Of a stretch of DNA of 64,000 nucleotides, positions 4,939 through 24,895 are shown in pieces. This DNA comes from Pseudomonadota bacterium (GTDB lineage Bacteria; Desulfobacterota; Desulfobulbia; Desulfobulbales; SURF-16). The translations under genes and the position numbers were made by a program. The notes under the pieces were generated by a model. That model searched no databases. It was not told where the DNA came from and saw nothing but the letters and a program-made list of their open reading frames with translations. The stretch lies in assembly GCA_018822545.1 (NCBI GenBank), contig JAHJKA010000051.1, forward strand, positions 12,570 to 76,569, in the 5' to 3' direction. Numbering within the stretch: the first letter of the stretch is position 1; each line of letters starts with the position of its first letter.

Positions 4939-5457
4939 TCAGACCTTGAACTTGGCCAGCTGCTGACAGGCATACTGCTGAGTATCAGAAAGGGCGCCCT
5001 GCTCTACATCTTTGAGTCCGAGCTGGACCTCTGCCACTCGGCCCTGCAACTCAGCAATACTCGAATTTACCACAGCCGCAAAATCCTGCAGGGGGTCCCC
5101 CTCCCGCAAGACGATTTTGACGGTGAGATCACCTTCACCCACCCGCCGAAAATCCTCTTCCACATGATAGAGAGGCCCTGCTATCTTCTGGGGCAGGAAA
5201 AGTGCAATCAGGAGGCCACTGATCAAACTGACGGCCGACCCAGCAAGGATGACCGGCAACAGGAGATCACTGACCCGGCGCACGGTAATGTGGGCTGTAT
5301 AAAAAGAATCCCCCAGTTCTTTGCGTGAATAAAAATAAAGGACAAGGGCAGCCACCAGGGCACTGAAAACAACAGCCCCCAAAATACGAAGCAACAGCCA
5401 CCGTTGAAACTCTCTTTTAACACCAATATTTAATTTCTTTCTCTTGTAGTTTTCCAT
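4939..5457 (-). CDS. Small membrane protein with a HAMP domain
   Basis: Two TM helices followed by PQKIAGPLYHVEEDFRRVGEGDLTVKI...DPLQDFAAVVNSSIAELQ (HAMP pattern). Last gene of the cytochrome train. Confidence 0.75.
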   Translation of the reverse strand: MENYKRKKLNIGVKREFQRWLLLRILGAVVFSALVAALVLYFYSRKELGDSFYTAHITVRRVSDLLLPVILAGSAVSLISGLLIALFLPQKIAGPLYHVEEDFRRVGEGDLTVKIVLREGDPLQDFAAVVNSSIAELQGRVAEVQLGLKDVEQGALSDTQQYACQQLAKFKV

Positions 5458-5478
5458 GACAACCTTCCTTGATCGGCT

Positions 5479-6666
5479 TTAGCCGAAGTTACGATGACAG
5501 CCGAGACAGAGATCCTTACGCTTTGCCCGAGTTAAACGATACTCATTGTCCGAGGCGTGGGCCTGGTGACAAGACATACAACTTAAACGGCCATCAGCCA
5601 TGGTGCGATACTCTGGAGGGATATGCATCCCGGCCTTGGGACGGATATCCACAGGATGTGAATGTTCGCCCTTGGACTGAGGATGGCAACCGACACAGAC
5701 AGTTATCGTCAGCGAGTAGGGATCGGTCAACTCAAGATGCTCTTGTGGCCGATTGGTTCCTACCCCATTCGCCTCTACTCTTAAGGTCTGCTCGCCAGTC
5801 CGGCCAAGGCGCACAGCCACCGGATGGCTGGTTGCAAAACGGGCAAAAAACCTTCCCTGCTCCTGATAAAAATGTGCCTTCATCGCAATCTGACCAGGCT
5901 GCCCCTTGGGCTTGAGCACAGGCTCGCTATAAAAATCACGGGTAGAGAGAATCATTTCTTGGGACATGGCCTTATTGCCATAGATATCGTGGGACACAAC
6001 GACAAACCTGTAGCGGCTCCCCGCATCAAGCCCGGCAACCAAAATCTCATGTTCGGTTGCCCACCTGTTGTCAAGTGCGGTGCTTGAGCCTAAATCCCCT
6101 TCACCATAGAATACCTGGGCATCGGTAATACGATCCGTCTTCCAGGCAATAATGGCAGAGAGAAAAACTCCTTTTTTCACCTCAACAACGCGGAGATCTG
6201 AAATCGTAATCTCTCCCTGTTGCAGGGAAAAGCGTTCTGCGTGATCAAGGGTCGGCAAGTTTATCTCTTGGTTTAGCACCTTGTTCTCACCCGCATTGGC
6301 CATGAGAGTAATCTTGGTACCCGCATAATGCGACGGCAGTTCAAACCAGTGCTCGTTATGCTCCTGACTATCCCGGACAAACCATTCAATTTCCTCATTG
6401 GCCTCTTCCTGGACAGCCCCAAGGCCAACAGACGGCATCCCTCCCTTGACATGACATACAGCACAATGATTTTCAAGAATAGGAGCATGGACATAGCGCT
6501 TAGAGGCACGCTCCTCGCAGACTTGAAAATGACAGCGACAGCACTCTTCCGGCGCAACAGTCCCACTTGCATCACCCTGCGCGGCAGCAATAATACAGGT
6601 TAGCCCGAACAAACCGGCTAGCCCCAAAAGAAATATTTTAAATCTTTTAAAACAAGGCATCTTCAT
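5479..6666 (-). CDS. Pentaheme c-type cytochrome with a central FN3-like beta-sandwich domain
   Basis: Signal peptide. Heme motifs CCRCH, CAVCH, CVGCH, CMSCH, CLGCH. The central segment AIIAWKTDRITDAQVFYGEGD...HEILVAGLDAGSRYRFVVVSHDIYGN follows an FN3/PAP-N-like pattern. Confidence 0.9.
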   Translation of the reverse strand: MKMPCFKRFKIFLLGLAGLFGLTCIIAAAQGDASGTVAPEECCRCHFQVCEERASKRYVHAPILENHCAVCHVKGGMPSVGLGAVQEEANEEIEWFVRDSQEHNEHWFELPSHYAGTKITLMANAGENKVLNQEINLPTLDHAERFSLQQGEITISDLRVVEVKKGVFLSAIIAWKTDRITDAQVFYGEGDLGSSTALDNRWATEHEILVAGLDAGSRYRFVVVSHDIYGNKAMSQEMILSTRDFYSEPVLKPKGQPGQIAMKAHFYQEQGRFFARFATSHPVAVRLGRTGEQTLRVEANGVGTNRPQEHLELTDPYSLTITVCVGCHPQSKGEHSHPVDIRPKAGMHIPPEYRTMADGRLSCMSCHQAHASDNEYRLTRAKRKDLCLGCHRNFG

Positions 6667-6687
6667 TTCAAAACTCTATCACATTCT

Positions 6688-8172
6688 TTAATCAACGACC
6701 ACGACATCGGCAGGCCGAGAACCAAGTTCAATGGTAGTCGCCACCTTGTTTGAAGTCTGATCAATAACCGAAATCACACCACCATCCTGGGCCGCCACAT
6801 AGAGCCACTTGCTTCGGTCAGCTGCGGCCATTTCAAGGGGCGTACTGCCCACAGCTATGGACCGAACCACCCGCTGTTGCCGAACAAGGACAAGGGACAC
6901 CGAGTTGCTCCGGGAATTACTGACATACAGGGTATTATCTTTTTTCAGGAGACGGCGCGGCGTAAAACCAACAGCCAGTCTTTTGACAACCTGACGGCTG
7001 TCGAGATCAAATATCCCGATATTATTGGCGCCCTGCTCTGCCACATAGAGGTAGTCACCATCCACCAACAGGCCGTCGGGGCTACTTCCTGCCGGGACGA
7101 TGTCTCGGGTTTCCAGGGTTTCAGGGTCAACAAAATAGATCTTTTGATCAAGAGCGGAGGACAGAATAAGCTGCTGGCTGGCTTCATACCAGACAAGGTG
7201 GCGGGGCTGGTAACCAAGACGTACCTTTTTATCCATGGAGCCCCGCACAAGGTCCATACGGATAAGATAATTCCCGCCCTCATCAAGGATATAGCCCCAG
7301 TTGCCTTGAGGGCTCATGAAATAGGAGGGCGATACTATCATGGGTATCTTAAATTGGTCGACAATGCGGTTGGTGGCAGTTTCTACCACGGTGATCGTTG
7401 ACTGCTTTTCCGAAAGAACATAGAGCCTCTTTCTCGCCGCCGAATAGACCATATGGGAAGGCCGACCTTTAATGGCAAGGGAGCCAGAGACCCGATTGCG
7501 ATCGGTACTGAGCAGGTAGAGGGTATCAATGTCCGGGCAGCTCACATAGGCAAGATCAGCAAGCAGGGGCTGGTGGGGACTTAACACCGCCATCTTGGCC
7601 GTAAAATGGGAGGCCTGGCCAACAGAGGCCTTATCATCCCAGGAGATGATGAGCACCCGACTCTCTCCTGCCTGTAGTTGAAAATTGCCGGGCAAGGGGA
7701 GATCGACAACCGGCTTGTCCAGGGCAAGCAAGAATTTTTCGCCGCCCCTTAGCAGAGCGGCGTTCTCCAGACTCAGGCGCAGGAAACGGTAGTCAGCGGC
7801 CAAGACCGAACCACGGGCCAAAAAACGCTGACCGCCGCCGATATCCGCGGCCGCCAGCTCTCTGTTGCCGCCGACAAGGGGGACGATAGAGGTCTCGCCA
7901 ACCAGTTCCACAGCAGAGATCTTCAGCCAGGCCTCGCCGCCATTATCCTGGGCCAGTTGGACAAAAACCGTGACCAGGGCCTCCTGGGGCGACATCTTTT
8001 GGCCAGGGACGAGAGGAGAAGAGCTGACGCCCGCCCCCTTCACACAACCATTTAAGCCAAAAAAAATTCCAAATAGAATTAAAGACAATAGTATAACTTG
8101 CCTCCATTCCCTACCGGAGCCCCTAGTAAAAACCTTGATTTCCATTTTCGAGTGCTTCCCCCAGCGTATCAT
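6688..8172 (-). CDS. YVTN-type beta-propeller repeat protein, probable lipoprotein
   Basis: Lipobox-like FFGLNGC. C-terminal repeats of the type LYVSNSRSNSVSLV..., WLYVAAQDGGVISVIDQTSNKV. The start is ambiguous (8172 or 8145). Confidence 0.85.
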   Translation of the reverse strand: MIRWGKHSKMEIKVFTRGSGREWRQVILLSLILFGIFFGLNGCVKGAGVSSSPLVPGQKMSPQEALVTVFVQLAQDNGGEAWLKISAVELVGETSIVPLVGGNRELAAADIGGGQRFLARGSVLAADYRFLRLSLENAALLRGGEKFLLALDKPVVDLPLPGNFQLQAGESRVLIISWDDKASVGQASHFTAKMAVLSPHQPLLADLAYVSCPDIDTLYLLSTDRNRVSGSLAIKGRPSHMVYSAARKRLYVLSEKQSTITVVETATNRIVDQFKIPMIVSPSYFMSPQGNWGYILDEGGNYLIRMDLVRGSMDKKVRLGYQPRHLVWYEASQQLILSSALDQKIYFVDPETLETRDIVPAGSSPDGLLVDGDYLYVAEQGANNIGIFDLDSRQVVKRLAVGFTPRRLLKKDNTLYVSNSRSNSVSLVLVRQQRVVRSIAVGSTPLEMAAADRSKWLYVAAQDGGVISVIDQTSNKVATTIELGSRPADVVVVD

Positions 8173-8180
8173 TACTCATA

Positions 8181-9470
8181 TTAAAAAGTCTTGCGATTGG
8201 TCTGCCTGGCTCCCGCCCAACTATCATCACTTCCGTGAAAATGGCAATTGCCACAGGGAATTGGTGGAGGATTTGAACCACCACTACCGTGACAAAGGGC
8301 ACACTGAGTCGGCGAATAAGGCCGATCAGAAGAATAGTGATGGATGTATTGCCATTTGCCGACGGTATTCGTACCGGCACTGGCGGCGGCATCATCCTTG
8401 TGGCATTGGCGACACAGGGCTCCCATGACATTGGTTGTGGTGATGGTGGCACTCAGATCGCCACCATTGACTCGTTTGCGCAGCAGCATGATATTTGAGG
8501 AACCATGGGGCTCATGGCAGTCCAGGCAAGAGAGGAGAAAATTGCTCTTGGTGGCAGCGGCTGCGGTATAAGGATTCAGGGAATCAAGGAGTCCTTCCCG
8601 CACCAAGCCACCATGTTTGTCACCACTGCTCGACCAGTCTATGCTGCGCAAATTTCTGGCCAGGGTTGTGCTGTAGATGGTGTTGCTCGTATTATGGCAA
8701 TTGGTACAGAAACCGACATAATCAGCAGTTTTCGAGCCATCCGCCGTGGTGGATCCATCCGGCTCCCTGGCAGTACTGGTGGCATTGGCATAGGGCGCCT
8801 CGTAACTGCTGTAGGACGACATCAACTCCGTCTGGCCCCAGAGGTTGAAATGGTCGGTGGGTTTGGAGATGGCGCTGGAAAGAGGGGCGCTGAAATCCTG
8901 ATAATTCCGCTTGGCAAGATGGGGGTTATGGCAAGCGTTACAAGGGTTGGAATACTCGCTGTACCAGGGGAACAGGATGCTCTCACCATCAACAAAATTA
9001 TGAATGTCACCCAGGTTATGGTAGGAGCGCTGGTTAAAGGCTTCCATAATATACTGGGGCAGGGTACCCGAGGCGTCACCGCCGAAGGTGGTGGCGTAAT
9101 CACCATTGACCACCACCTGCGCCGTGGCAGAGGCACTATGGCAGTAAAAGCAGACATTATCAGCCACCAGATAGGAGCCAGGCACGGCGCTCGTATTGAA
9201 ATTGGTGGCGAACAGGGTGTAGGCGCTTGGCGTGCCAGCCGTAGGCGCTGGCTCAGAGCCGGCCACGCTGGCATGCGTTTCATGACAATGGAGGCAATTG
9301 CCGGTGGCAAAGCTGGTGGTTGCCGAGCGCTCCACCCCAGCGCTGCTTGAACCGTGGGCCGAATCAAGATAGCCCCCTGCCCACAACGCCTCTGGCAGCA
9401 GGAGGAGCCCCGCCAGGGTCACCGACAGTGGCAACATATTTAATCTTTGGCAGTATGACATATGGCGCAT
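8181..9470 (-). CDS. Octaheme c-type cytochrome
   Basis: CLHCH, CFYCH, CNACH, CTNCH, CLDCH, CRQCH, CALCH, CGNCH. Signal peptide. The 5' end overlaps the stop of the upstream OmcS-like gene. Confidence 0.9.
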   Translation of the reverse strand: MRHMSYCQRLNMLPLSVTLAGLLLLPEALWAGGYLDSAHGSSSAGVERSATTSFATGNCLHCHETHASVAGSEPAPTAGTPSAYTLFATNFNTSAVPGSYLVADNVCFYCHSASATAQVVVNGDYATTFGGDASGTLPQYIMEAFNQRSYHNLGDIHNFVDGESILFPWYSEYSNPCNACHNPHLAKRNYQDFSAPLSSAISKPTDHFNLWGQTELMSSYSSYEAPYANATSTAREPDGSTTADGSKTADYVGFCTNCHNTSNTIYSTTLARNLRSIDWSSSGDKHGGLVREGLLDSLNPYTAAAATKSNFLLSCLDCHEPHGSSNIMLLRKRVNGGDLSATITTTNVMGALCRQCHKDDAAASAGTNTVGKWQYIHHYSSDRPYSPTQCALCHGSGGSNPPPIPCGNCHFHGSDDSWAGARQTNRKTF

Positions 9471-10528
9471 CCGTTAAAGCCGGTTCCCGGCCAGTTCTTA
9501 TAATCCCACCGCAAACTGCCGTCAAACTGGCTGCCGTGGGCCCGATGACAAGAAAGACACATGACAATGGCATCATTGGCCTGACCATAGACCACGCTGT
9601 TGAGGGTGGTCGAGGTATCGGCGGTAGCCACCGGCGAAATTACGCTGTAGGGATTCCCCGCCCCCTGATAATCATTGTAATAATAATATTCCGAGGTGCT
9701 GAAGGTGGGGCCCTGCGAGCGGGCATTACTCATATCGTAATCGGTGGGATGGCGGATCCAGACATTATTGGTGAAGATGCCGGCGGAAATTTCACCAGTG
9801 CCATTATGGAAGTCATTATGGCAACGACCACAATGACTGCTGATGGTGCCAGCGCTGTCTGACTCTCCGGTGCGGTCGATACTATAATACTTGTTATGGG
9901 CCGCACTGGTGGGTTGAAACTCATAATCGCCATCTTCCAGACCCTTGACACCTTCGATGAAACGATAACTCTTAGCCACACTACTGCCGTCGTTCCAGGC
10001 CGACATATCATTTTTATGATGGCTGCCCAGCACGGACAGGGTTGGATCGACCTGGCCCTGGGAACCATGACAGCCATAGGTGCCGGCACAGGTAAGCTGA
10101 CTGAGCAATAATGCCCCCCCTGGAGGCTTATTGCCGTGTTCCAGGTCCTGACCTGCAAGATCCACAACGTTATGGCCGGCCCGATTATTGCCCGTGCTGA
10201 CCCAGTAGAAATTACCGCCGGCCAGGGTGTTGCCCTCGGTGCCGGTGGCCCCATAGGTGGGGCCGGCGGCATCAAAGACGTAGGGCACAGAACCGCTGCT
10301 GTTGCCCCCCTGGTGGCAGCCCACACAATCGGTGGTGAGCAGTCCCTTGTTGGCCACCGAGGTGTATGTCTTTACACCGCTGGCCATGGTAAAAGCCATA
10401 GGGCTACCGGCCTGACTGTTGTGCATGGTGTGGCAATTGACACAGGACCCGGAGACCTTGGCCCGGGCAGCCCAGGGCAACACGAGCAGGACGGCTAAGC
10501 ATATCCATATATATTTCTTAGAGTCCAT
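9440..10528 (-). CDS. OmcS-family hexaheme c-type cytochrome (paralogue 1)
   Basis: Blocks match my recollection of Geobacter OmcS: CVNCHTMHNS, AGGNFYWV, AGHNVV, CGRCHNDFHN...WIRHP, MCLSCHRAHGSQFD, C-terminal CAICHTAKD. Five CxxCH plus CAGTYGCH. Confidence 0.85.
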   Translation of the reverse strand: MDSKKYIWICLAVLLVLPWAARAKVSGSCVNCHTMHNSQAGSPMAFTMASGVKTYTSVANKGLLTTDCVGCHQGGNSSGSVPYVFDAAGPTYGATGTEGNTLAGGNFYWVSTGNNRAGHNVVDLAGQDLEHGNKPPGGALLLSQLTCAGTYGCHGSQGQVDPTLSVLGSHHKNDMSAWNDGSSVAKSYRFIEGVKGLEDGDYEFQPTSAAHNKYYSIDRTGESDSAGTISSHCGRCHNDFHNGTGEISAGIFTNNVWIRHPTDYDMSNARSQGPTFSTSEYYYYNDYQGAGNPYSVISPVATADTSTTLNSVVYGQANDAIVMCLSCHRAHGSQFDGSLRWDYKNWPGTGFNGCAICHTAKD

Positions 10529-10537
10529 ACTCCTCCT

Positions 10538-11443
10538 TTACCGCCCAAACACCTGAACCCGATTATTACCCTCATCGACAATGCACAGACGGCCCCAGGG
10601 ATCAAAAAGAATCTCCATGGGATAATAAAGGCTCTGCGGGCCATGGCCCTTATCAAGAAATCTGTATTTGAGCTTGGCCTTGCGATCCAGAACAATCACC
10701 TCGCCCTGATGCCGGTCGAGAATATAGACAAGACCACCGTTATCCAAGGCAAGGGCAACTGGAAACTTCACCAAGTCCGAGATATCTATCCGTTTCGTGA
10801 TTAAACCGTTGTCGCTATAGACATATAGGGTTTTTTCCTGTTGCCCCAAGGCCCATATCTGTTTGTCGACAATCTTGAAATCAACAATACCACCGCTGTT
10901 TTCCGGCAGAGGGAAGCGCTGCTCAATCTTAAAAGAATCCGACAGACGATATATCTGCCCGGTGGCCCTATCCAGAACATAGAGACTGCCCGCCGAGCTT
11001 TCAAGACGGTCGACCATGACTTGCCGCCCCTGATCCTGGACCACCACCCTCGTTGTTTCTTTGCTGGCAAAATCGATTTTGGTCAGGGAGTTTTTGCCCT
11101 TTTCAACAACAACCAGAACCGATTCATCCAGGCGAACCATGTCAAAAGGCTTAAGCAGGCCGCCCTCAGGGCTGAATGTTTTCTGGAAGGCGCCCTGGTC
11201 ATCAAAAGAGGCAAGCCGACCGCCGGCACTGTCCACCATATAATAGCGTTTCTTGTCACCATCCACATAGAGCGCTGTCGGCAAGGCGTCATGGAGGCTC
11301 TTGTCACTCAAAGTGAAGGCTAATTTCCAGGGGCTTGGAGCGTCCGTCGCCCGAACGTGACCGGGGATGGCCAGACAGAAAAGGAGAGCCACAACCCCGG
11401 CCACTGGCAGGGAACATCTTTTTACAATCCAGATGGTATCCAT
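10538..11443 (-). CDS. NHL-repeat beta-propeller protein
   Basis: Repeats ending ...PMEILFDPWGRLCIVDEGNNRVQVFGR. Signal peptide. ATG at 11443 with AGAGGA upstream (the ORF track's GTG is at 11458). Confidence 0.85.
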   Translation of the reverse strand: MDTIWIVKRCSLPVAGVVALLFCLAIPGHVRATDAPSPWKLAFTLSDKSLHDALPTALYVDGDKKRYYMVDSAGGRLASFDDQGAFQKTFSPEGGLLKPFDMVRLDESVLVVVEKGKNSLTKIDFASKETTRVVVQDQGRQVMVDRLESSAGSLYVLDRATGQIYRLSDSFKIEQRFPLPENSGGIVDFKIVDKQIWALGQQEKTLYVYSDNGLITKRIDISDLVKFPVALALDNGGLVYILDRHQGEVIVLDRKAKLKYRFLDKGHGPQSLYYPMEILFDPWGRLCIVDEGNNRVQVFGR

Positions 11444-11667
11444 TTTTTCCTCTAACACCTTTGACGGTAATATTTTTTAAGACCGGCACTCATTTCAGTA
11501 CCACCTCGGAGTCTAGCGCTTACCTGAGGGGTATAAGTGACTCGAAGGTCTCGCTTGCTCGCTATCTGGAGCTAACCAAAAGTAAGTAGTTCCCACAATG
11601 ATTCTCCAGTCTCTCGGAGTCTCGTCCCTCGCTTACCTTTTTTTCGCAAAGGTTAACGATTAAGTCA

Positions 11668-12831
11668 CTAATAGCTTCGGTGACATTGTACACACAGGGC
11701 CTTTTTACCGCTGAGCTTCAGATTATAGCGATACTCAGTGCCCATGGGATCATGACAGGAAAGGCAGGTCATGCCCTGGCCAGTGCGGTGATCAACGATG
11801 TCACTGCCCACCGGATGACTGAACTCACCTTGAGTCTTGTGGCAGCGTGAACAAACAGCATTGCCATCGGCATTGAGCATCACCAGCCTATCTGAGCCAT
11901 GGGCATCATGGCAGTCCGTACATTTCTCGGTCTTCGGATGGGGATGGAGGCTGCGTCGGTTCCGGTCAAAGGTGTCGGTATGGCACGACCGGCAGAGCTG
12001 CTCATAGGGGGCCTTGAGAAGACCCGCTATGTCAGAGGCATGGGGGCTATGACACTCCACGCAGGTGCCATCCCCGGCAAACATATGGGTATGGGGAGCC
12101 AGCATCTGCTCTCTGACCCCGGCATGACAGCTCAGACATAACTCGCTGCCCTTGGCCTCTTTGCCATGACACGAGGTACAACCCTTTTTAAAGGGGGCAT
12201 GACTATTTGCCCGGATCAGGCCCTTGCCTTTGCCGCCATGGGGATTATGGCAGGAGAGACATTTGCCCGCCTTGCCAGGGAAACCCTTATGACCGGCCAA
12301 GGCATCCGGCTGGCTATGACACCCCAGACACAGCTTGTCGCTATCCTCCTTAAGGAGCTGGTAGTTGTCAGCGTTATGGGGCTGGTGACAGGCCACACAG
12401 TTCCCCTCGGCAAAGGGCTTATGTTTCCGCGCAAACTCATTTTTAGCAAGGGACTCATGGCAACTAAAACAGCTGTCGGCAATTGGCCTGCTCAACAAAC
12501 CCTTCTGGGCTGAGGCATGGGGGCTATGACACGCCAGACACTTCCCCTCGCGAACCGGCAGGTGCTGCACCCCTTGACCAAAGGCCTTTTTAGCCTCCCC
12601 ATGACAAGAATAGCAGAGATCGCCACCCTGCTTCTGGAGCAAACCCTTGAATTTGGCGACATGGGGATTATGGCACTGGGTGCATTTACCCTGGGCCACA
12701 GGCTCATGAACAATCTTGCCGCTGAATTCCTTTTTGGGATGACAGCTGATGCATCCCTGCGCAGCCAAGGCAGAATTACAAAATAAGACCAGGACGCCTG
12801 CTGCAAGCAGTATCGCAAAACGAATCTTCAT
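11668..12831 (-). CDS. 16-heme c-type cytochrome (c7/c3-type tandem modules)
   Basis: 16 CxxCH motifs in 387 aa with a regular ...H.PV..G.C..CH.PH... periodicity. Signal peptide ending ALAAQG. The start overlaps the upstream stop (ATGA). Confidence 0.92.
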   Translation of the reverse strand: MKIRFAILLAAGVLVLFCNSALAAQGCISCHPKKEFSGKIVHEPVAQGKCTQCHNPHVAKFKGLLQKQGGDLCYSCHGEAKKAFGQGVQHLPVREGKCLACHSPHASAQKGLLSRPIADSCFSCHESLAKNEFARKHKPFAEGNCVACHQPHNADNYQLLKEDSDKLCLGCHSQPDALAGHKGFPGKAGKCLSCHNPHGGKGKGLIRANSHAPFKKGCTSCHGKEAKGSELCLSCHAGVREQMLAPHTHMFAGDGTCVECHSPHASDIAGLLKAPYEQLCRSCHTDTFDRNRRSLHPHPKTEKCTDCHDAHGSDRLVMLNADGNAVCSRCHKTQGEFSHPVGSDIVDHRTGQGMTCLSCHDPMGTEYRYNLKLSGKKALCVQCHRSY

Positions 12832-16970: not shown

Positions 16971-18469
16971 ATCTCCCTCAACGCCATCTTATTCACCTCT
17001 TTATCAGCAAAAAAATCGGATTCTCCTTCTGTTTTTTTCTCCTCCACAGGAACCAGGGCTGCCACATTGCGGCGCAGCCGGTTGCCCAGCATATCCTGAG
17101 CATAAAGGCGGTAACTCATGTTCTGGCCGGCAACAGCGGCAAGGGGCATCATAAGACTGCCGGTTGACTCGGTTCCACTGCTTTCCGAAATAATATCACC
17201 GTTCTGGTTCTGAATCTCAAGACGCCAATAGGCAAGGGGTATTTCACCATCATATTCCAGGTTCAGGGCCAGGCTGTTTTCCTGCTCTTTCATGGCCACT
17301 ACTATTTTGGGCTCCCGGCGTATCACCCGGATTGCTTCTTCAGCAAAAGCCTTGTTACCTGCCCTGTCCCAGACCGTAAGATTAATGGTATAAAAGCCAT
17401 CCCCCACCAGAGCACCATTTTTTGCTTGCCCCCACCATGAAAACCGATCTGGCAAACTGTCCCAGCCCTCATCATTCATGATTTCGACACCATCTTTATC
17501 GCGTACTGTCATCAACCAACGACTGATGGGTTCTGGATTTTTCATAAGGGGCACAATGGCCACATTTTTCTGGAGCACGACAATGCCATTAAGCTCCTGA
17601 CCTTTGAGCTGCAGAGTCAAGGCCGGTATCTGGTTATCAACAAGATAACTACCAATAAGCACCTCCTGGTTTGCAACACCAGGGCGAGAAATAGCTGCCA
17701 TTACAGGATAGCGCTCATTTTTGAGCGCAGCCGGCCACGATGCCACAAAACTGTTTTCATCTTCGTGATAGCTGGCCTCAATAATACGCTCATCAACATA
17801 CAAAGAGACTGAAGTATAAAAAAGGCTGGCCGGTAAGACTCCCAACTTGATGCGACAAAGAACCATATCACCAGGCTTTAAGATTTCAGGCCCCATTTCA
17901 ACCGACTCAATAGTCTCACGAATATCCAGGGGCCGACCATGTTGGAAATCAGCAGGAATGGTCAACAGCGCCCTGCGCACCACCATTTCCTCCATCTCAT
18001 CCATGTCCTGGGGCTGTGATAACCCCAACAGACCAATTTCATCGGCACCGGACAACTCAGTACTTTGCGCCCAGATTATCTGCGCGTCTCCGGTCCTGAT
18101 TAATTGCAAGGTGAGACCAAGGGCAAAGGGTTTCTTGACCCGCCGTTGATTCACTGAACCAAGAAGAAGATATTCAACACCAAGGTCATCATGAAGACGG
18201 CGGACATATTGACTGCCAAGATATCCAAGCCAGCGTACCCTATTTTTCACCATAAAGGTGATGACCTCATTTTGATCGGCCATGGCAAAACCCTTTGCCG
18301 CCATACCATCACTAAGCCGCTGGGTAATGGCAAGGTTCAAACCATTCCCCCCACGGCTCAAATCCTCCATGGGCATAACGGCAACCTTAACGCCCTGACT
18401 GAACCCGACATGGGGGTGCAGCGTGGTCAGCATCAAAAGCAGCAGTATGAAGGTTTTACGATAACGCAT
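16952..18469 (-). CDS. Secreted protein: N-terminal LpoB/CsgG-like domain plus C-terminal Ig-like (FlgD-Ig-type) domains
   Basis: Signal peptide. VAVMPMEDLS... and LGVEYLLLGSV... at the N-terminus. The C-terminal beta-rich segments GDGFYTINLTVWDRAGNKA and YRLYAQDMLGN are typical of Ig-like sandwich domains. Confidence 0.7.
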   Translation of the reverse strand: MRYRKTFILLLLMLTTLHPHVGFSQGVKVAVMPMEDLSRGGNGLNLAITQRLSDGMAAKGFAMADQNEVITFMVKNRVRWLGYLGSQYVRRLHDDLGVEYLLLGSVNQRRVKKPFALGLTLQLIRTGDAQIIWAQSTELSGADEIGLLGLSQPQDMDEMEEMVVRRALLTIPADFQHGRPLDIRETIESVEMGPEILKPGDMVLCRIKLGVLPASLFYTSVSLYVDERIIEASYHEDENSFVASWPAALKNERYPVMAAISRPGVANQEVLIGSYLVDNQIPALTLQLKGQELNGIVVLQKNVAIVPLMKNPEPISRWLMTVRDKDGVEIMNDEGWDSLPDRFSWWGQAKNGALVGDGFYTINLTVWDRAGNKAFAEEAIRVIRREPKIVVAMKEQENSLALNLEYDGEIPLAYWRLEIQNQNGDIISESSGTESTGSLMMPLAAVAGQNMSYRLYAQDMLGNRLRRNVAALVPVEEKKTEGESDFFADKEVNKMALREIWVEDF

Positions 18470-18485: not shown

Positions 18486-19055
18486 TCAATGGGGTATGGT
18501 GCTCAGTATTTTATCAACAAGGGCCAGCGTGAGCTCAAACGGCCCCACCGAGGCCAGGCCAAAGAGCCGGCGCCAGGCTGAATCGCCACTTTCATGACCG
18601 CTGGCCTGCCAGATCACCAGGCCGCTCTCCACCTCCAGCAGACGCATGGTTACTGATAATTCAGGATACACCACCGCCCCTTTCCGACCCTCGTCGGCAA
18701 GATCAATGGTGCCAAGCATGACAGCCTGGATATTAAGGCGCTGGCCTATGCGCCGCAGAGCCTGACGATCCAGGGGTTTGCCGGGATCAATGGCCTCCTC
18801 GTGGAGAAGACTATCCACCACCCCCTTGTCAATCACGTCAAAAAGCCCCCGGCCAAGAACCTGAGTCATGACGAGATTGCGAACCCGTTCCGGGGCATAT
18901 TCATCCTTGCTGTTATTTTCCAAGGGGAGAACAGCTATGCTTCTGACAAAACCAATATCAATATTTTCCCTGCTGAAACTTTCAAGCCCCCCCCTCATCG
19001 CACAACCAGATGCGCTTAAAGAGAGCAGCAGCAAGACTACAAATATTCTTTTCAT
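18486..19055 (-). CDS. Lipoprotein with an LpoB/FlgO/CsgG-like domain
   Basis: MKRIFVVLLLLSLSASGC lipobox, IAVLPLENNS..., LNIQAVMLGTI... The ORF track's upstream extension to 19286 translates a DNA repeat (RKARKPKRKARKPK) and is not credible. Confidence 0.75.
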   Translation of the reverse strand: MKRIFVVLLLLSLSASGCAMRGGLESFSRENIDIGFVRSIAVLPLENNSKDEYAPERVRNLVMTQVLGRGLFDVIDKGVVDSLLHEEAIDPGKPLDRQALRRIGQRLNIQAVMLGTIDLADEGRKGAVVYPELSVTMRLLEVESGLVIWQASGHESGDSAWRRLFGLASVGPFELTLALVDKILSTIPH

Positions 19056-19140
19056 AATTATATATGCCTCATCATTATATAGTACACCCTCATGAAACCG
19101 GAGGAGGGGTAAACTCTGCAGCCCCGTAAACCGATTTTTT

Positions 19141-19230
19141 GCCACGGAATCCACGGAACCCTCTGAAAAAACCTTTTTTGGTTTCCGTGCCTTCCGTTTT
19201 GGTTTCCGTGCCTTCCGTGGATTCCGTGGC
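19141..19230. repeat. Composite palindromic/tandem repeat element (CCGTGG-type)
   Basis: Perfect 18-bp inverted repeat GCCACGGAATCCACGGAA (19141-19158) / TTCCGTGGATTCCGTGGC (19213-19230). It encloses two tandem ~20-21-bp units GGTTTCCGTGCCTTCCGT.. (19180-19200, 19201-19220). Confidence 0.9.
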
Positions 19231-19298
19231 CAAACTGTAAAGGTACAACCTTGCCAACCAGCACACCATAGCCATTTCAGGTCCAAGCCGTTTCGCTG

Positions 19299-21395
19299 CT
19301 ACATAACAGAAAACCTGGCCACCAATTGCGACTGTACCAGCCACTCTTCCTCGCCCTGACTTTCAGAATAACTGCCATTGCCCTGGATGGTAAAATGGGG
19401 CCCCAGGGACCAGCTGCCAAATAGGGAATATTTATCAATGCGATTGATGGCTTTTGCGTAAATATAGTTCATGGAAAACTGGGTGGTATCTGTGGGAGCC
19501 AAAGAGAGCGAAACGCTAGCCCCTTCACTTTGGCTGTCACTGCCGAGCCACTCCTTGTTGCCGGACACATGCATCGACAGCATATCACTTGCCCGCCAGT
19601 TAATACTGAGATCAGCCCCGGTGGTCTCACTGCCGTCATCGCCCAAGGTGTGTTGATAATCCGTGGTCAGATCAGCGGTAACAGAGGGGACAAGACGGGC
19701 TGTCAGGGTAAGAATGGTGTGATAATTTCTGGTGGTTAGATCGGTGTCTTCTTGTTTGATCCAGCCATAGTTAAGATCAACACTGGCATCCAAATCAGGA
19801 TAGAGGGCTGCCGTGGTAAACAAGCCGACGTTATGATTGACCGACTGACGCTCTGAGCCCTCATATTCTTCAGACCTGGTAAGGCCCATATTGACATCAA
19901 CCGTATCCAGCGGGATGGCGTCCATATTCAGGGTATAGGAACGGCTGGAAGATTCGTCGGCATCGCCGTTCTGGGATTTCGACTCATTCACTCCCACCGT
20001 GGTGGTCAAGGCGGCAAGGGTCTGCCATGTGAGGTGCCCAGCCTGGCTGGAGCGGTCATACTCAACCCCAGAGCCATATTCACCGTTCTCAAAAGAGAGG
20101 TTATAGGTCAGGGTCAGAGTATCAGTCAACCGAGCGCCAAGGTTCAGATCGGTGATCATGCTGGACGAGGTGGAGGTGAGCTCTGCCTTATCCACGCCTG
20201 TGACTCGCTGATAGGCCTCAATTTCTGTAAAATCCACCGTGGTCAAGGGACTTGAGGTGATAACCAGTTTCAGCCACAGATTATTCAAGGCCGGAATGGG
20301 GAATTCAAAACGTTTTTCAGCGCTATTATAGCTGAAAGGCAGTGAGTTCGTACTCAGTTGCCAGTTGCTACCATTATCACTGGTATAGAGGGCAAAGGTG
20401 AAACTTGCAGCCACTGCGGCACGATCTACGGCGGTATACAGGTAGATCTCGTCAATGATCTTAAAATCCGTCTTCATGGCGATGCTATGGGGGGAGGGGA
20501 CATCAATGCCGTTGGTGGCCACAGAAGAGGCTGTGGTCAGATCACCATCATGGAGGGCAGCCACCGCGTTGAGCTCTCCAGCCGTAGTTATGGTTAAGGG
20601 GGCAACGTCGAGACCATGGAGAACCTGGGACAGGCTCTGACGAATCAGGGCAGAGCTTGTCGTGCCAAGGGCCGTAGTGGATTTCTCACGATTTTCGGAG
20701 AACTGGTTGGCAAAACCAAAGGTCAGGCGATTTTGCCACAAACTATGATCGGCCTCCAGGCGGGCAAAATTGCTGGTGCTATCGCTTTGCCGGTCAGTGG
20801 CGATGTTGTTATATTTGTTACGGTTGTAGTTAAAATAGGTTTTAAAAAGCTCAAAATCCCAGTCCAGGGCCACACTTTCATTTTTATTTTCACTATCGGT
20901 TAATCTCGGAGAATTATCATCCTCCTGAAAATCTTCACCGTAGGTGGTCCGCAGATTGGGCCAGAAACGCTTTTCCCAGGAACTGGCCCACACTGCCTCC
21001 CAACTTGCCCTCTTCTGATCGGCAGATATGGTATTACGCTGCTGACTGGCAGAGCCAAAAAGCTCAAAAACAAACAGATCGTTGCTAATGCCAAAACGCA
21101 TGCTGGGATCAACACTCTGGGTGTCGTACTCTTCACGCCAGCCCGAGCTGTAACGCATTGATTCCTGCAAAGACATCGCCTCAGTGACCTCCTGTTTCAG
21201 GTCCAGGGTGTAGGTTAAGAAATACTCATCAGTCGCAACCTCATCCTTACCATCACTGTGAGACCAGTTTGCCGTAAGATCCTGCCCACCTCCTGCTACC
21301 TGAGGCATAATGAGCACACAAAAAAGAAATGACAGAAGAACAACGGTGCGAGAATGTATGCCTTGCCTCATCTCCTCGTTATTTCCTTCTGTCAC
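19299..21395 (-). CDS. Large outer-membrane beta-barrel protein with an internal discoidin (F5/8 type C)-like domain
   Basis: Signal peptide. Long runs of alternating hydrophobic/polar residues at both ends. Central ALHDGDLTTASS...IDEIYLYTA...FALYTSDNGSNWQL...WLKLVITS...DFTEIEAYQ follows the discoidin pattern. Confidence 0.7.
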   Translation of the reverse strand: MTEGNNEEMRQGIHSRTVVLLSFLFCVLIMPQVAGGGQDLTANWSHSDGKDEVATDEYFLTYTLDLKQEVTEAMSLQESMRYSSGWREEYDTQSVDPSMRFGISNDLFVFELFGSASQQRNTISADQKRASWEAVWASSWEKRFWPNLRTTYGEDFQEDDNSPRLTDSENKNESVALDWDFELFKTYFNYNRNKYNNIATDRQSDSTSNFARLEADHSLWQNRLTFGFANQFSENREKSTTALGTTSSALIRQSLSQVLHGLDVAPLTITTAGELNAVAALHDGDLTTASSVATNGIDVPSPHSIAMKTDFKIIDEIYLYTAVDRAAVAASFTFALYTSDNGSNWQLSTNSLPFSYNSAEKRFEFPIPALNNLWLKLVITSSPLTTVDFTEIEAYQRVTGVDKAELTSTSSSMITDLNLGARLTDTLTLTYNLSFENGEYGSGVEYDRSSQAGHLTWQTLAALTTTVGVNESKSQNGDADESSSRSYTLNMDAIPLDTVDVNMGLTRSEEYEGSERQSVNHNVGLFTTAALYPDLDASVDLNYGWIKQEDTDLTTRNYHTILTLTARLVPSVTADLTTDYQHTLGDDGSETTGADLSINWRASDMLSMHVSGNKEWLGSDSQSEGASVSLSLAPTDTTQFSMNYIYAKAINRIDKYSLFGSWSLGPHFTIQGNGSYSESQGEEEWLVQSQLVARFSVM

Positions 21396-21449
21396 TTTTT
21401 CACAACGACGACATCCTCGTACCGAAGAAAACCGCCTCCCCTGTCTGGG

Positions 21450-23207
21450 CTATCTGCTCGGTTTAATCTGGGGTTTATTCCGATCATAGGACTTTGGAGC
21501 ATGGCAGCCCACAACGCAGGTGGCGCCATTCTTGTCTTTGGTTATCGAAATCGGATACGACCAGGCACCAAAAGGCACCTCCGTGCGGATATGTTTCGCC
21601 TGGGTACTGACATGGGGATCATGGCAGGCGATACAACTGCGCCCCTTCTTCATGTTAACATGGAAATAATGGAGGTTGTATTCACCGTCCCTGAAATTGG
21701 TAAGGGTCTTGGTGAATTTCTTCTTGGCGATATCCTTATTATGACAGCCGAAACAGAGCTCATAATTCTCCGGCCGATACTCCATGTAGAATTCCTCCGG
21801 GAAATACTTGGAGAGTATCCGGGTGTTATTGGAACCATGAACATCGTGGCAGGCCATACAGTCACCTGTCTGCACAGGGCCATGACGAAACTGGCTACCT
21901 GCGACCTCGTCGGCCAATTCATCATGGCAGGTGAAACAGAGCTCTTCGGTATTCTTCTTCAGCATGGATTTCACATCGGAAGAATGAGCCCGATGGCAAT
22001 CGGTACAACGCCCCTTCTCCACCGGCTCATGCTTGAATTTTGAATTCTTGATGGCATCATAGAGCTTGGGGCTCTTCTTCTCGTGACAGTCGGCACAGAG
22101 CTGCCCCCCCTCCTTGTGGAGTTGGAAGCGGTTGTCCGAGCTGTGGGGATCATGACATTTATTACAATCATCCTGCACCGGGGCATGCACATACTTCATG
22201 GAAAATTCCTGCTGGCGATCCTTATGGCACTGAAAGCAGACCTCGCCCTTTTCCGGTGAGGCGATCAGCAGACTTTTATACTTGCCGGCATGGGGTCTGT
22301 GGCAGGCGATACAGTCACCGGAGCCCACCGGCCCATGACGATGGCTCTTGGTAAAGATCTTGGATTCATGGCAGTTAAAACAGAGGCTGCTGACACTGGC
22401 GCCATTCCCCCGGAGTTGAAAACGCATGGCAGACTCATGGGGGTTATGGCAGGAAATACAACCCTCGGTAACCGGCTTATGGATGACGCTGTCTTTAAAT
22501 TCTTCAATCTTGGCCTGATGGCAGACCACACATAAATCCTGACCGGTACGGGCAATGGCCATGGCATTATAGGAACCGTGTGGGTTATGGCAGGAAATAC
22601 AGACACCGGCCCCCACGGGGCCATGGACATGCGCGCTCTTGCCCATATCGCTATGACAGCCGCCGGTGGTACAGTTGGCCTTGGCCGGGACATTCCGCTT
22701 GAAATTAAATATACCCCGTTTCAGCTTATGGCATTCCTTGCAGTCGAGTTCGGCAGGATTAGCATGGACATAGAAGCGTTTCAGGCCCGAAGGAGCAGCC
22801 TTGCCCTTTCTCAGGGCTTCAGATTCCAGATAATAGACATGAACTGTTTTCTGTTGCTTGCCGTCGGAGAGAACGATTTCATTATTTCCCTTATCAAGGG
22901 TAATCATGACACCAAAGGCCTGGTTTTCGACCTTGATCTTGCTTTTGGGGGCGTTATTTTTAACGCCCTTGATCTCCAGCTGGGTAACGGTGGTTTCACT
23001 GACAATACCCGCTAAAAAAAGCGCCTTTTCCGTGACCCAGACATTATCGGGGGGAGAAACCACGGTAATAACATTAGCCGCCAAGGCATGACCAGCACCG
23101 ACAGAGAGCAACCCACCCATCAGCAATATAACGGTCACAACAACAGACAACATGCCGATCTGTCTTGAACTTTGCTTCACTCCTTTCAACGTCTCTCCTC
23201 CAAACAT
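21450..23207 (-). CDS. Multiheme c-type cytochrome (14 CxxCH + CX4CH + CX3CH) with an N-terminal Ig-like domain
   Basis: 14 canonical motifs plus CTTGGCH and CVVGCH. TM/signal MLSVVVTVILLMGGLL. The start is uncertain: the ORF is open to 23318, and the ATG at 23207 has GGGGGAA upstream. Confidence 0.88.
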   Translation of the reverse strand: MFGGETLKGVKQSSRQIGMLSVVVTVILLMGGLLSVGAGHALAANVITVVSPPDNVWVTEKALFLAGIVSETTVTQLEIKGVKNNAPKSKIKVENQAFGVMITLDKGNNEIVLSDGKQQKTVHVYYLESEALRKGKAAPSGLKRFYVHANPAELDCKECHKLKRGIFNFKRNVPAKANCTTGGCHSDMGKSAHVHGPVGAGVCISCHNPHGSYNAMAIARTGQDLCVVCHQAKIEEFKDSVIHKPVTEGCISCHNPHESAMRFQLRGNGASVSSLCFNCHESKIFTKSHRHGPVGSGDCIACHRPHAGKYKSLLIASPEKGEVCFQCHKDRQQEFSMKYVHAPVQDDCNKCHDPHSSDNRFQLHKEGGQLCADCHEKKSPKLYDAIKNSKFKHEPVEKGRCTDCHRAHSSDVKSMLKKNTEELCFTCHDELADEVAGSQFRHGPVQTGDCMACHDVHGSNNTRILSKYFPEEFYMEYRPENYELCFGCHNKDIAKKKFTKTLTNFRDGEYNLHYFHVNMKKGRSCIACHDPHVSTQAKHIRTEVPFGAWSYPISITKDKNGATCVVGCHAPKSYDRNKPQIKPSR

Positions 23208-23395
23208 GTTTCCCCCATTCATCAAGCCGCCATGATCATGGCAAGCAGCGTGACAACCTCGACGTTCAGCAAGGGCACGAAGATTTAAAGCATTCGTGAT
23301 CTTGCTGAATCCCGACATGTAAAAAAAGCTGCAGGAGCACTAAGCGCAGACTCCGACTTCGCTCCCACAGCTTATACTAACCAGCATACACGAAA

Positions 23396-23436
23396 ACACC
23401 GCATCGGCCCATAAACTCTGAGCCGTTGCGGTGTTC
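23396..23436 (-). terminator. Candidate (leaky) intrinsic terminator after OmcS-like paralogue 2
   Basis: On the minus strand, AACACCGCAACGGC / GCCGATGCGGTGTT form a 14-bp stem with one mismatch, followed by TTTTCG. It lies in the 146-nt gap between 23465 and 23318. Confidence 0.5.
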
Positions 23437-23464
23437 ATTACCAAGACGTTACCCTGTCTTGCTG

Positions 23465-24631
23465 TTATACATCATCCTTCGTGGTATGACATGCAAAGCA
23501 GCCACTGGTATTTGAGCCGGCATGGGCATCCATCCCAGAGTAATCCCAGCGCAGCAAGTCAGCGTTTGGTGAGCCATGGGCCCGATGGCAGGAGATACAG
23601 GTCACAACCGCATTTCCGTTAGCAGATCCGGCACCACCGATGTAGTCGATGGCTGTCACGATGGTTGCGCCACTCAAGGTGACCGAAGCAACCGGAGCCT
23701 CAAGATTGTAGGCGGTATAACCGGCATACTCCGAGGTTGTGGCCAAAGCACTCATGTCAAAATCCGTAGGGTGCCGTACCCATGGAGAACCAAAGGTGCT
23801 GCTGCTGATATTGCCTGCACCGTTATGGAACGCACCGTGACATTGCGCACAGAGTGAGCTGATTGTCGACGTGGTGTTCGTTGCCTCATCAGAACGGGCA
23901 ACCCCGGAGTAGAGGTTATGATCAGCAGTTGCTTTTGTGGCATCAGCTGTATACTCCCAGTCAGCATCCTCGATGCCGGTAATACCAGACAGCATACGGA
24001 AGGCATCGGACATATCAGTGGTGGAGCCGGCAACATAGCCGTTGGTGGCAGCATTGCCTGGGCCATGATGACCGCCGGCGATGGCGCCGAACTCATCCGT
24101 CGAAGTCGCTGCCCTGTCACCATGACAACCGGTGACACCGGCGCAGGTCAGAGCGGAAGGAAGAGGAACATTAGCGGCACCACCATTGCCAGGTGCAGAC
24201 GTAAGGGTGCTTTCAAGATTTGCAGAAGGAAGGCCAATTACATTATGCCCTGATGCATCGTTACCAGCATTGACCCAATAGAAGTTACCACCAGCCAAGG
24301 TATTCACACCAGCAGCACCGGCCACACCATAGGTGGGCGCAGCAGTACCCAATACAAAAGGCACCGTGCCACCAGCATTATCACCGGTATGACAACCCAC
24401 ACAACCATAACGAAGCAGCGCACCATTTGGCGTATTATCGGCAACAATTGCCGCACCAAAGGCGCCAGTGCTGGCCATAGCCGTACCATCCTGGCTATTA
24501 TGCATGGTATGACAGTTACCACACGGGCCGCTGACCTTGGCTGCTGCCAGTGACGGCAGGGCGAAGGCTGCACTGATGGCAATGACCGCTATCAGCTTGT
24601 TTTTGTCCACATATCTCTTCATCGTTTTCAT
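23465..24631 (-). CDS. OmcS-family hexaheme c-type cytochrome (paralogue 2), first gene of the train
   Basis: CGNCHTMHNS, AGGNFYWV, SGHNVIG, CAQCHGAFHN...WVRHPTD, TCISCHRAHGSPNAD, CFACHTTKD. Five CxxCH plus CAGVTGCH. Signal peptide ending SLAAA. Confidence 0.88.
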   Translation of the reverse strand: MKTMKRYVDKNKLIAVIAISAAFALPSLAAAKVSGPCGNCHTMHNSQDGTAMASTGAFGAAIVADNTPNGALLRYGCVGCHTGDNAGGTVPFVLGTAAPTYGVAGAAGVNTLAGGNFYWVNAGNDASGHNVIGLPSANLESTLTSAPGNGGAANVPLPSALTCAGVTGCHGDRAATSTDEFGAIAGGHHGPGNAATNGYVAGSTTDMSDAFRMLSGITGIEDADWEYTADATKATADHNLYSGVARSDEATNTTSTISSLCAQCHGAFHNGAGNISSSTFGSPWVRHPTDFDMSALATTSEYAGYTAYNLEAPVASVTLSGATIVTAIDYIGGAGSANGNAVVTCISCHRAHGSPNADLLRWDYSGMDAHAGSNTSGCFACHTTKDDV

Positions 24632-24880
24632 CCTCCCTAATTCGGTTTTCCTTACACTTTGGGGGAACCCTCTCCTCTCTCAAAAGAAGGTCTCTCGCCT
24701 CTAAATAGCAGCCGATTTCAGCGTGGCGGCTTCGACTGCCCATGCTCTGTCTCCGTTTTTTTCAGCCCCGGAAACAGCACCCTCATCTATTATGATATAA
24801 CACTCACCAGCAGAGGGCAACCCTCACACCTTCTTCTTCACTCCATAAATCCACAAAGAAGGCCGTATGTATTTTAAACA

Positions 24881-24895
24881 GCAAGGGCCATGCCA
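24881..24895 (-). promoter_or_regulatory. sigma54 (-24/-12) promoter
   Basis: The minus strand reads TGGCATGGCCCTTGC(TG). GG and GC are at consensus spacing against TGGCAC-N5-TTGCW. About 250 nt upstream of the ATG at 24631. Confidence 0.75.

Follow-up and report, generated by a model that had tools for sequence, protein, structure and literature searches.

What does a train of fifteen co-directional genes, with an OmcS-family multiheme cytochrome gene on each side of its central block, do for a Desulfobulbales bacterium of the SURF-16 lineage? The genes follow one another on the minus strand from position 24631 to position 4939 of the stretch of contig JAHJKA010000051.1 studied here (64,000 nucleotides (nt), hereafter the window), as consecutive open reading frames (ORFs) labelled A to O. 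An original prediction, made from the letters of the sequence, took them for a sigma54-driven supraoperon encoding a candidate cytochrome-nanowire machine. On sequence grounds, the cluster is the Desulfobulbales orthologue of the published osc/oet cluster and as such a known system. We think it fairly probable that this osc-type, outer-membrane-centred system exports, anchors and electrically feeds extracellular OmcS-family cytochromes.

Homology to the Geobacter osc cluster

The original prediction had pointed to an OmcS-companion gene neighbourhood in Geobacter, and the synteny comparison confirms it: the osc cluster (GSU2504–GSU2493) is homologous to the window cluster and largely collinear with it. 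As references we used the omcS regions of a G. soli/anodireducens-like genome (L003), Geotalea daltonii FRC-32 (L085) and Geobacter sp. DSM 9736 (L086), the complete Geobacterales clusters having been reached via the OmcS homologues of the last two; osc letters were assigned from the gene numbers in PMC13194489, and matches were made by BLASTP. The window has homologues of OmcS/OmcT/OscC, OscD, OscE, OscF, OscG, the peptidyl-prolyl isomerase (PPIase) OscH, the 26-heme OscI, OscJ and the NHL protein. Since these homologues are the same and the order C-D-E/F-G-H-I equals OscE-F-G-H-I-J, the window cluster can be classed as osc-type. In both Geobacter and the window, the first OmcS-family gene is preceded by the gene of a sigma54-type response regulator.

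The individual matches differ in strength. Gene H aligns with Geotalea OscI over its full length (34% identity, E=5e-117, 26 CXXCH motifs in each), and B aligns with the same protein over 480 amino acids (aa) at 32% identity; gene I is 41% identical to OscJ across the 103 aa that were available of the latter (E=2e-23). D matches OscF at E=2e-21, M matches OscD at E=4e-15, and J matches the NHL proteins encoded ahead of omcS in Geobacter (E=2e-8) and Geotalea (E=2e-6). The OscE barrel, of about 700 aa, carries the same inserted beta-sandwich as gene C (E=3e-14), and G resembles Geotalea OscH over 486 aa at 22% identity (E=5e-8). OscG is a special case, being split in the window into two genes: residues 23–150 of E match OscG residues 37–164, the first LpoB-like domain (E=3e-15), ahead of a 350-aa immunoglobulin-like (Ig-like) extension with a weak FlgD_ig-like match, and F matches OscG residues 220–368 (E=9e-10). 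The E and F pair is present in most loci of the clade, whereas Geobacterales (L085 and L086) have a single two-domain OscG of 372–392 aa.

Other differences concern composition and order. OmcS and the OmcS-like proteins of the window have only 25–27% identity, the latter being about 70 aa shorter and carrying a CX5CH motif at heme site 3. The OscD-like gene M stands downstream of K, whereas Geobacter OscD is encoded upstream of the barrel. Genes B, L, N and O are conserved extras on the window side, and the GSU2502-like protein of 1017 aa has no counterpart in the window cluster. Unlike the Geobacter osc cluster, the window has an OmcS-like gene on each side of the machinery block.

The arrangement is widespread. 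An OmcS-family alignment scan of GTDB species representatives returned at least 566 loci, and the locus counts given throughout cover the best 80, many of which are incomplete. All 80 belong to the clade of A and K (the K/A clade) and come from Desulfobulbales, Thermodesulfobacteria, Desulfuromonadales, Nitrospirota and Thermosulfidibacter; the best match to K among the loci listed has 59% identity. By the similarity of its proteins, the organism of the window groups with Desulfobulbales, among relatives of Hydrosulfovibrio, Thiovibrio and Desulfurivibrio. The block C-D-E-(F)-G-H-I is collinear in 45 of them (Desulfobulbia, Thermodesulfobacteria, Desulfuromonadales and Nitrospirota), 33 loci go on with J and an OmcS-like gene, and K follows J in 42 related loci. 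The isolate Hydrosulfovibrio ferrireducens CB1MN (Desulfobulbaceae) has all 15 genes in order at 35–65% identity, the layout being a J-like and a B-like gene on the minus strand, the regulator, two copies of A, and then B through O. A scan with Geobacter OscE alone as the query found nothing.

Within the window, the fifteen minus-strand ORFs lie where they had been predicted, and a recount of the heme motifs gave the same figures of 79 canonical and four non-canonical. The CXXCH motifs are distributed as A 5, B 14, H 26, I 16, K 5, L 8 and N 5, and the non-canonical ones in the mature proteins are a CX5CH each in A (CAGVTGCH) and K (CAGTYGCH) together with a CX4CH and a CX3CH in B; a fifth, CX3CH at residue 22 of B, falls in an N-terminal extension that is probably untranslated. 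At their N-termini, the soluble components have Sec signal peptides, and lipoboxes are found on D, F, H and probably M. Among maximal ORFs, 12 of the 14 junctions are at most 54 nt or overlapping (A-B 146, B-C 54, C-D 12, D-E 16, E-F -19, F-G -13, G-H -35, H-I -1, I-J 209, J-K 9, K-L -31, L-M 8, M-N 21 and N-O 21 nt). The public contig of the metagenome-assembled genome GCA_018814345.1 carries an identical gene set, and its gene-caller starts widen four gaps (C-D 243, I-J 224, L-M 185 and M-N 75 nt), so that mostly short spacing holds even then. For D, where the caller gives 189 aa, the true start is probably the ATG at 19055 (MKRIF..., lipobox SASGC). The true start of B probably lies between 23153 and 23222, the ATG at 23318 abutting a terminator T-run and having no ribosome binding site; with the start of B moved behind the terminator, the A-B gap becomes about 240–310 nt.

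The predicted domains fared unequally. The PPIase (Rotamase_2 in G, E=1.6e-17), the NHL propeller J and the YVTN/YncE propeller M (TIGR02276, E=1.5e-24, and YNCE) all reach family thresholds, and the 26 hemes and lipobox of H were recovered. H also passes the curated cutoffs of TIGR03508 (265 bits, cutoff 192) and NF041028 (330, cutoff 325), of the DmsE and GSU2203 families, and H, B and I are made of DmsE/MtrA-type and GSU2203-type decaheme modules. The LpoB (D, F) and GNA1162-like (D) matches stay below threshold, and here the OscF and OscG homology lends support. The discoidin domain of C likewise gave a sub-threshold match (F5_F8_type_C, E=8e-4), and since the AlphaFold2 model of C has an eight-strand beta-sandwich at about residues 265–400, inserted in a barrel of about 28–30 strands (predicted local distance difference test (pLDDT) 81), a discoidin-bearing barrel is plausible. 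The match of N to a fibronectin type III domain is not significant (fn3, E=0.13), and the HAMP segment of O is weak, with matches at E=1e-4 to regions of CtpM and WalK that contain HAMP and none in Pfam; the N-O pair is kept in 12–15 related loci. Pfam and NCBIfam scans assigned no family to C, E, F or O. The predicted interval itself proved too small, as the conserved unit also takes in a regulator gene and a divergent operon on the far side of A (Table 1).

Table 1. Genes and regulatory features of the osc-type locus, in window coordinates
Feature	Coordinates	Strand	Description
Divergent companion operon	27249..30873	+	Thioredoxin-like (AhpC/TSA/Redoxin) + TPR protein, decaheme (B-like), NHL protein (J-like)
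NtrC-type sigma54-dependent response regulator (bacterial enhancer-binding protein, bEBP)	25237..26583	-	Directly upstream of gene A
Hairpin + U8 run (terminator-like)	25089..25132	-	3′ of regulator gene; RNAfold -25.4 kcal/mol, z -3.8
Predicted sigma54 -24/-12 element TGGCATGGCCCTTGC	24881..24895	-	TGGCAT-N5-TTGC, 264 nt upstream of the ATG of A
Gene A	23465..24631	-	OmcS-family hexaheme (5 CXXCH + CX5CH), Sec signal peptide; candidate major filament subunit
Terminator-like hairpin 1 after A	23394..23436	-	-28.7 kcal/mol, z -5.9, then UUUUCG
Terminator-like hairpin 2 after A	23319..23373	-	-25 kcal/mol, z -3.2, then U7
Gene B	21450..23318	-	16-heme (14 CXXCH + CX4CH + CX3CH), N-terminal beta-sandwich
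Gene C	19299..21395	-	Large outer-membrane beta-barrel, inserted discoidin-like beta-sandwich; OscE homologue
Gene D	18486..19286	-	LpoB/GNA1162-like lipoprotein, OscF homologue
Gene E	16952..18469	-	Secreted; N-terminal LpoB-like domain + ~350-aa Ig-like extension
Gene F	16368..16970	-	Lipoprotein (lipobox LSGC), matches second OscG domain
Gene G	14746..16380	-	Periplasmic parvulin-type PPIase, OscH homologue
Gene H	12831..14780	-	26-heme lipoprotein cytochrome (lipobox LGAC), OscI homologue
Gene I	11668..12831	-	16-heme (16 CXXCH) periplasmic cytochrome, Sec signal peptide; OscJ homologue
Gene J	10538..11458	-	NHL-repeat beta-propeller; Pfam NHL E=1e-8
Gene K	9440..10528	-	Second OmcS-family hexaheme (5 CXXCH + CX5CH); in operon, no terminator
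Gene L	8181..9470	-	Octaheme (8 CXXCH); N-terminus resembles OmcS-like family (CLHCHETH)
Gene M	6688..8172	-	YVTN/YncE-type beta-propeller, probably lipoprotein (LNGC); OscD homologue
Gene N	5479..6666	-	Pentaheme cytochrome (5 CXXCH), central beta-rich region
Gene O	4939..5457	-	Small protein, two transmembrane segments + HAMP-like segment

One element of the C-D spacer stands apart from the cluster. At 19142–19229 on the minus strand, a perfect inverted repeat of 17–18 bp (CCACGGAATCCACGGAA and its complement) surrounds a short direct repeat; the window has a single copy, with a folding energy of -42.9 kcal/mol (z -4.1). Among 62 related C-D spacers, only 2 have stems of at least 10 bp, and no stem in related loci is comparable to that of the window. 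The hairpin is specific to this lineage, and we rejected it as a part of the system, as it is not conserved. It might be an inserted repeat element or a site of RNA processing or stability.

The OmcS-family cytochromes and the control of gene A

Judged by their sequences, A and K are genuine members of the OmcS family, which bears out the two bracketing genes of the original prediction. A profile built from the clade of K alone, free of Geobacter sequences, has OmcS (PDB 6EF8) as its sole significant PDB match (E=1.3e-19); K by itself matches 6EF8 over residues 28–342 with phmmer (E=6e-11) and OmcS with BLASTP (E=2e-20). A matches OmcT, OscC and OmcS at E=5e-13 to 1e-10, conserves the CHTMHNS motif and has 42% identity to K; the spacing of its Shine-Dalgarno sequence favours the second ATG, at 24622, as the start. 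In alignments that include Geobacter OmcS, OmcT and OscC, the six heme sites are collinear with those of OmcS, five being CXXCH and the third CX5CH, conserved as CAGxxGCH throughout the K/A clade. The CHTMH histidine and the heme-5 CxxCH-RAH motif are invariant (H36 and C324-C327-H328 in 58 sequences). With OmcS numbering taken from the PDB alignment of K, we take the second histidine of CHTMH to be OmcS His16, the inter-subunit ligand to heme 5 of the neighbouring subunit, and His332 to lie in the heme-5 motif; the roles of both residues were reportedly described by Wang et al. in 2019.

The OmcS-like genes of the surveyed loci fall into two orthologous groups, A-type genes, which adjoin the regulator, and K-type genes, which follow J inside the operon. 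By their motifs, A and K fall within the published "sister clade of OmcS", whose heme motifs are CX2-5CH. When Desulfurivibrio alkaliphilus respires iron oxide with sulfide, OmcS-like genes of this sister clade are induced by a factor of more than 100, and a member has a template modelling (TM) score of 0.56 to OmcS (PMC12545173). The Desulfurivibrionaceae proteins DA_402, DA_756 and DA_765, also from Desulfobulbales, are extracellular hexahemes whose CX2-5CH motifs were aligned to the six OmcS sites, and we liken them to A and K by description; a filament has been predicted only, for DA_402 (PMC12545173). DA_756 and DA_765 are nine gene numbers apart, which is the spacing of A and K in the A-C-D-E-F-G-H-I-J-K layout of loci L054–L059, and we infer that they correspond to A and K. 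That study treats the cytochromes and does not describe companion machinery.

Gene L may be a third, divergent OmcS-related extracellular cytochrome. Comparison with the K-type profile by hhalign gave a probability of 83% (E=9e-6, 95 columns), BLASTP to OmcS gave E=5.5e-6, and L keeps CxxCHxxH (CLHCHETH), the pattern that provides the inter-subunit histidine of OmcS. It is perhaps the "OmcX" of the oet literature.

Transcription of A appears to begin at a predicted sigma54 promoter, with an activator gene adjacent. The activator has Response_reg, Sigma54_activat (E=4e-59) and HTH_8 domains in Pfam and, in its AAA+/HTH part, shares 41% identity with the sigma54 regulator encoded ahead of Geobacter omcS; a homologue adjoins an A-type gene in 20 of the 80 loci. 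By the statistics of the window alone, the promoter motif is not significant (12 matches at no more than one mismatch, 7.4 expected). Yet of 7 loci in which the regulator is followed by A, 6 have an equivalent element 239–268 nt ahead of the A-type gene (background rate, 0.016 per 450 nt), and it is this conserved position, not the window statistics, that makes the promoter well supported as a prediction. In the seven loci that have the regulator diverging from A, no such motif was found. Separately, the minus strand has a second sigma54-like element, TGGAACATAACTTGC, at 26861–26875, about 280 nt upstream of the regulator ATG at 26583, which hints at autoregulation or control by another activator.

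The promoter of the proposed supraoperon is upheld by its conserved position, but a single 15-gene unit is doubtful, since terminator-like hairpins flank A on both sides. One follows the regulator gene, and 3 of 7 related regulator-to-A junctions have such sites. Two more follow A itself; these were found by reading and folding the A-B spacer, the simple terminator scan having failed to list them. Terminator-like sites follow A-type genes at 19 of 31 junctions (6 of 12 A-to-A, 5 of 10 A-to-B and 8 of 9 A-to-C), whereas each junction type inside the C-to-K block has 0–1 among 42–63. The insulation of A by hairpins contradicts a simple supraoperon of fifteen genes. A TGTCAC-N5-TTGC sequence between the terminators and B (23241–23255) was considered as a sigma54 promoter and rejected for want of the GG dinucleotide, which is nearly invariant in sigma54 promoters, and its rejection leaves no promoter identified for B to O. 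The likeliest arrangement on this evidence is an abundant, sigma54-driven transcript of A and a B-to-O unit expressed by read-through or from a separate promoter.

With a promoter to itself and a terminator behind it, A looks like the gene of a polymer subunit made in large excess over its machinery. In chaperone-usher pilus operons, terminator-like structures after the major subunit gene set the stoichiometry. These operons (fim, pap) are a functional analogy to the locus in having a periplasmic folding helper, a barrel platform and major and minor subunits, and usher barrels are among the structural matches of C; the subunits and the chaperone have no sequence or fold relationship to ours, and OmcS polymerises by heme-histidine coordination, whereas chaperone-usher pili do so by donor-strand exchange.

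Proposed export and conduction, and which way electrons might flow

Homology, synteny, heme content and regulatory elements are observed here; to the parts we assign roles from the Geobacter work and from their anatomy. The original prediction held that what the parts do was not established, and this is outdated as far as proposals go: as cited in PMC13194489, Shen et al. 2025 (Cell Chem Biol 32:239) propose folding for OscH, secretion for OscE/F/G and morphology for OscD. On this model, the NtrC-type regulator would activate the sigma54 promoter before A, and A would be the major OmcS-like subunit, in large excess because the two hairpins would stop most transcripts after it, with B to O expressed at a lower level by read-through or from another promoter. 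The apo-cytochromes would cross the inner membrane via Sec and receive heme in the periplasm, where the thioredoxin-like protein of the divergent operon could keep their cysteines reduced. The PPIase G, like OscH, would fold and escort the OmcS-like subunits to an outer-membrane channel or platform formed by the OscE-like barrel C and the OscF/G-like proteins D, E and F. For Geobacter, Shen et al. reportedly found that OscH and OscG bind OmcS. H and I (OscI/J-like) would take electrons across the periplasm to the surface cytochrome, with B as a further periplasm-spanning heme wire; the propellers M (OscD-like) and J would modulate assembly; and K, at the position of OscC in Geobacter, would be a minor, in-operon OmcS-like subunit. 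The physiological role is probably respiration of Fe(III) oxide or of another extracellular acceptor, by analogy with Desulfurivibrio.

Several observations weigh against such an export and wiring system. No filament has been observed for any OmcS-like member of the sister clade, and the physiological need for OmcS filaments is itself disputed in the Geobacter field (PMC13194489). The CX5CH at site 3, the roughly 70 residues by which the clade is shorter and its lack of the OmcS C-terminal insertion mean that the geometry of polymerisation could differ. An AlphaFold2 model of K from the 58-sequence alignment reached a pLDDT of 43, so that the OmcS fold of K is a prediction from sequence; a low value is expected for a heme-scaffolded protein modelled without heme. 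G and OscH, and C and OscE, are of low similarity (22–26% identity), and the structure that matches C best, MtrB, sheathes a conduit and is neither a secretin nor an usher. Of the predicted nanowire machine, then, the osc homology and collinearity stand, whereas a filament in the sister clade is an extrapolation and a conduit reading has also been published.

That reading, of a porin-cytochrome conduit only, is rather unlikely in our estimation. C would sheathe a heme wire, with H as the outward lipoprotein cytochrome and I as the periplasmic one, as in MtrCAB or OmaB-OmbB-OmcB; the OmcS-like proteins would be surface electron acceptors or donors that need not polymerise, and D, E, F and G would assemble the conduit. 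Murali et al. 2023 (PMC10553843) so described the OetABI cassette for Geobacter and for the sulfate-reducing partners of anaerobic methanotrophic archaea (ANME), as a porin-cytochrome conduit with OmcS-like proteins and OmcX. Its porin OetI, periplasmic cytochrome OetA and lipoprotein cytochrome OetB we equate with C, I and H by description only. The cytochrome genes are there described as positioned analogously to Geobacter omcS/omcT, and the distribution reported for the cassette (Desulfuromonadales, Geobacterales, Desulfobulbia and Thermodesulfobacteria) agrees with our locus survey; the PPIase, the LpoB-like proteins and the propellers are not discussed in that paper.

A conduit is favoured further by the anatomy of H, with its canonical lipobox and its scores above both curated cutoffs, by the DmsE/MtrA-type and GSU2203-type modules that it has in common with I and B, and by a sister clade in which no filament is known. 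The structure of C speaks on both sides. Against PDB, the best match of its model is MtrB of Shewanella MtrCAB (6R2Q_B, E=1.8e-9), followed by TonB-dependent receptors and pilus ushers, and MtrCAB likewise joins a large barrel to MtrA/DmsE-type modules, as do C and H, I and B; the TM score is, however, only 0.39–0.42, C has more strands and the beta-sandwich insert, and the heme wires of the window hold 16–26 hemes against 10. The barrel family of C is itself large (1059 representatives after clustering at 50% identity, E<=1e-3) and nearly all of its members are 680–730 aa long. PF11854 (MtrB_PioB) matched none of 21 scanned members, one fragment (P0255) having a precomputed match, and with no recurring signal in the family, an MtrB_PioB relationship of C finds no support in the sequence.

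The companions of the barrel are harder to place in a conduit, since the PPIase, three LpoB-like proteins and two propellers are strictly co-conserved here. To our knowledge, Mtr offers no counterpart to the PPIase, lipoprotein and propeller partners, and no described Mtr/Pcc conduit includes a PPIase, three LpoB-like proteins or two propellers. The promoter and terminator of A's own suggest a polymer subunit, and OscE to OscH have been proposed to fold and secrete the OmcS nanowire (Shen et al. 2025, as cited in PMC13194489). Assembly and conduction are not mutually exclusive, and both sets of proteins may well be parts of one device. We would put forward, tentatively and with low confidence, a single integrated nanowire socket in which H threads C and K, possibly with L, is a basal adaptor that seeds polymerisation of the terminator-limited A. 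If this were true, export, anchoring and charging would be one structure with a stoichiometry set by transcription attenuation, and the competing Osc (assembly) and Oet (conduit) models would be unified.

Electrons could also flow in the opposite direction, the same machinery taking them up from minerals, cathodes or a syntrophic partner, and this we consider unlikely. In principle, a multiheme wire can conduct either way. For syntrophic sulfate reducers, it has been proposed that OmcS-like cytochromes and the oet cassette accept electrons from ANME (PMC10553843), and outer-membrane cytochromes of D. ferrophilus IS5, which may be of the same family, are induced by electron-donor starvation and have been linked to electron uptake (PMC5815863). 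However, the closest relatives that have been studied suggest an outward flow: D. alkaliphilus induces its sister-clade OmcS-like genes during iron-oxide reduction (PMC12545173), and the closest cultured genome with the same cluster bears the species name ferrireducens. The direction is not set by the sequence of the window. Finally, a chance juxtaposition of unrelated cytochrome and envelope genes, for which several spacers above 180 nt and the hairpins after A might be cited, deserves practically no credence: synteny excludes it, the order recurring across at least four phylum- or class-level lineages, and junctions overlap and terminators are almost never found inside the C-to-K block.

Neighbouring operons and biological meaning

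The divergent operon upstream of the regulator is probably part of the same system, as its cytochrome and NHL pair recurs in several related loci: in L048, L049, L055 and L070, the regulator and A likewise have J-like and B-like genes upstream of them on the other strand. Its thioredoxin-like protein could serve the reduction of apocytochrome cysteines.

Beyond it, the plus strand from 31406 to 56070 holds a dense signalling block: a PAS-GGDEF protein, a PAS histidine kinase, a PilZ-PAS-sigma54 activator (35918–38068), a hybrid kinase with HAMP and Hpt, a response-regulator-GGDEF protein and, judged from N-terminal sequences, several further large sensor- or receiver-type proteins. The PilZ-bEBP fusion near the cytochrome cluster suggests an input of cyclic di-GMP into sigma54-dependent transcription. 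At the other end of the cluster, no convincing terminator was found directly after O, and the roughly 780 nt on its 3′ side (4150–4938) have no called gene in two public copies of the region. Just downstream, the minus strand encodes, at 2451–4156, a GGGtGRT-family protein (Pfam E=1.5e-192) together with a weakly NifU-like one, and the pair is retained in both public contigs that carry the region.

The system is already known, having been published under two names, as has the OmcS-like clade. Specific to this locus are the Desulfobulbales complement with its extras B, L, N and O, the split OscG, the OmcS-like genes on both sides of the machinery and the conserved promoter-terminator insulation of the A-type gene. 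How nanowires exit the cell and are wired to the periplasm is still debated, and to that debate the locus adds no new question. It may offer useful handles, in the sigma54 promoter and terminators that isolate A, in K embedded in the operon and in OscG as two genes, and a compact cluster with a culturable close relative, Hydrosulfovibrio ferrireducens, makes the assembly-machine and conduit models testable. Far from Geobacter, sulfur-cycling Desulfobulbales, which have been implicated in sulfide-driven iron-oxide respiration, keep the whole companion set.

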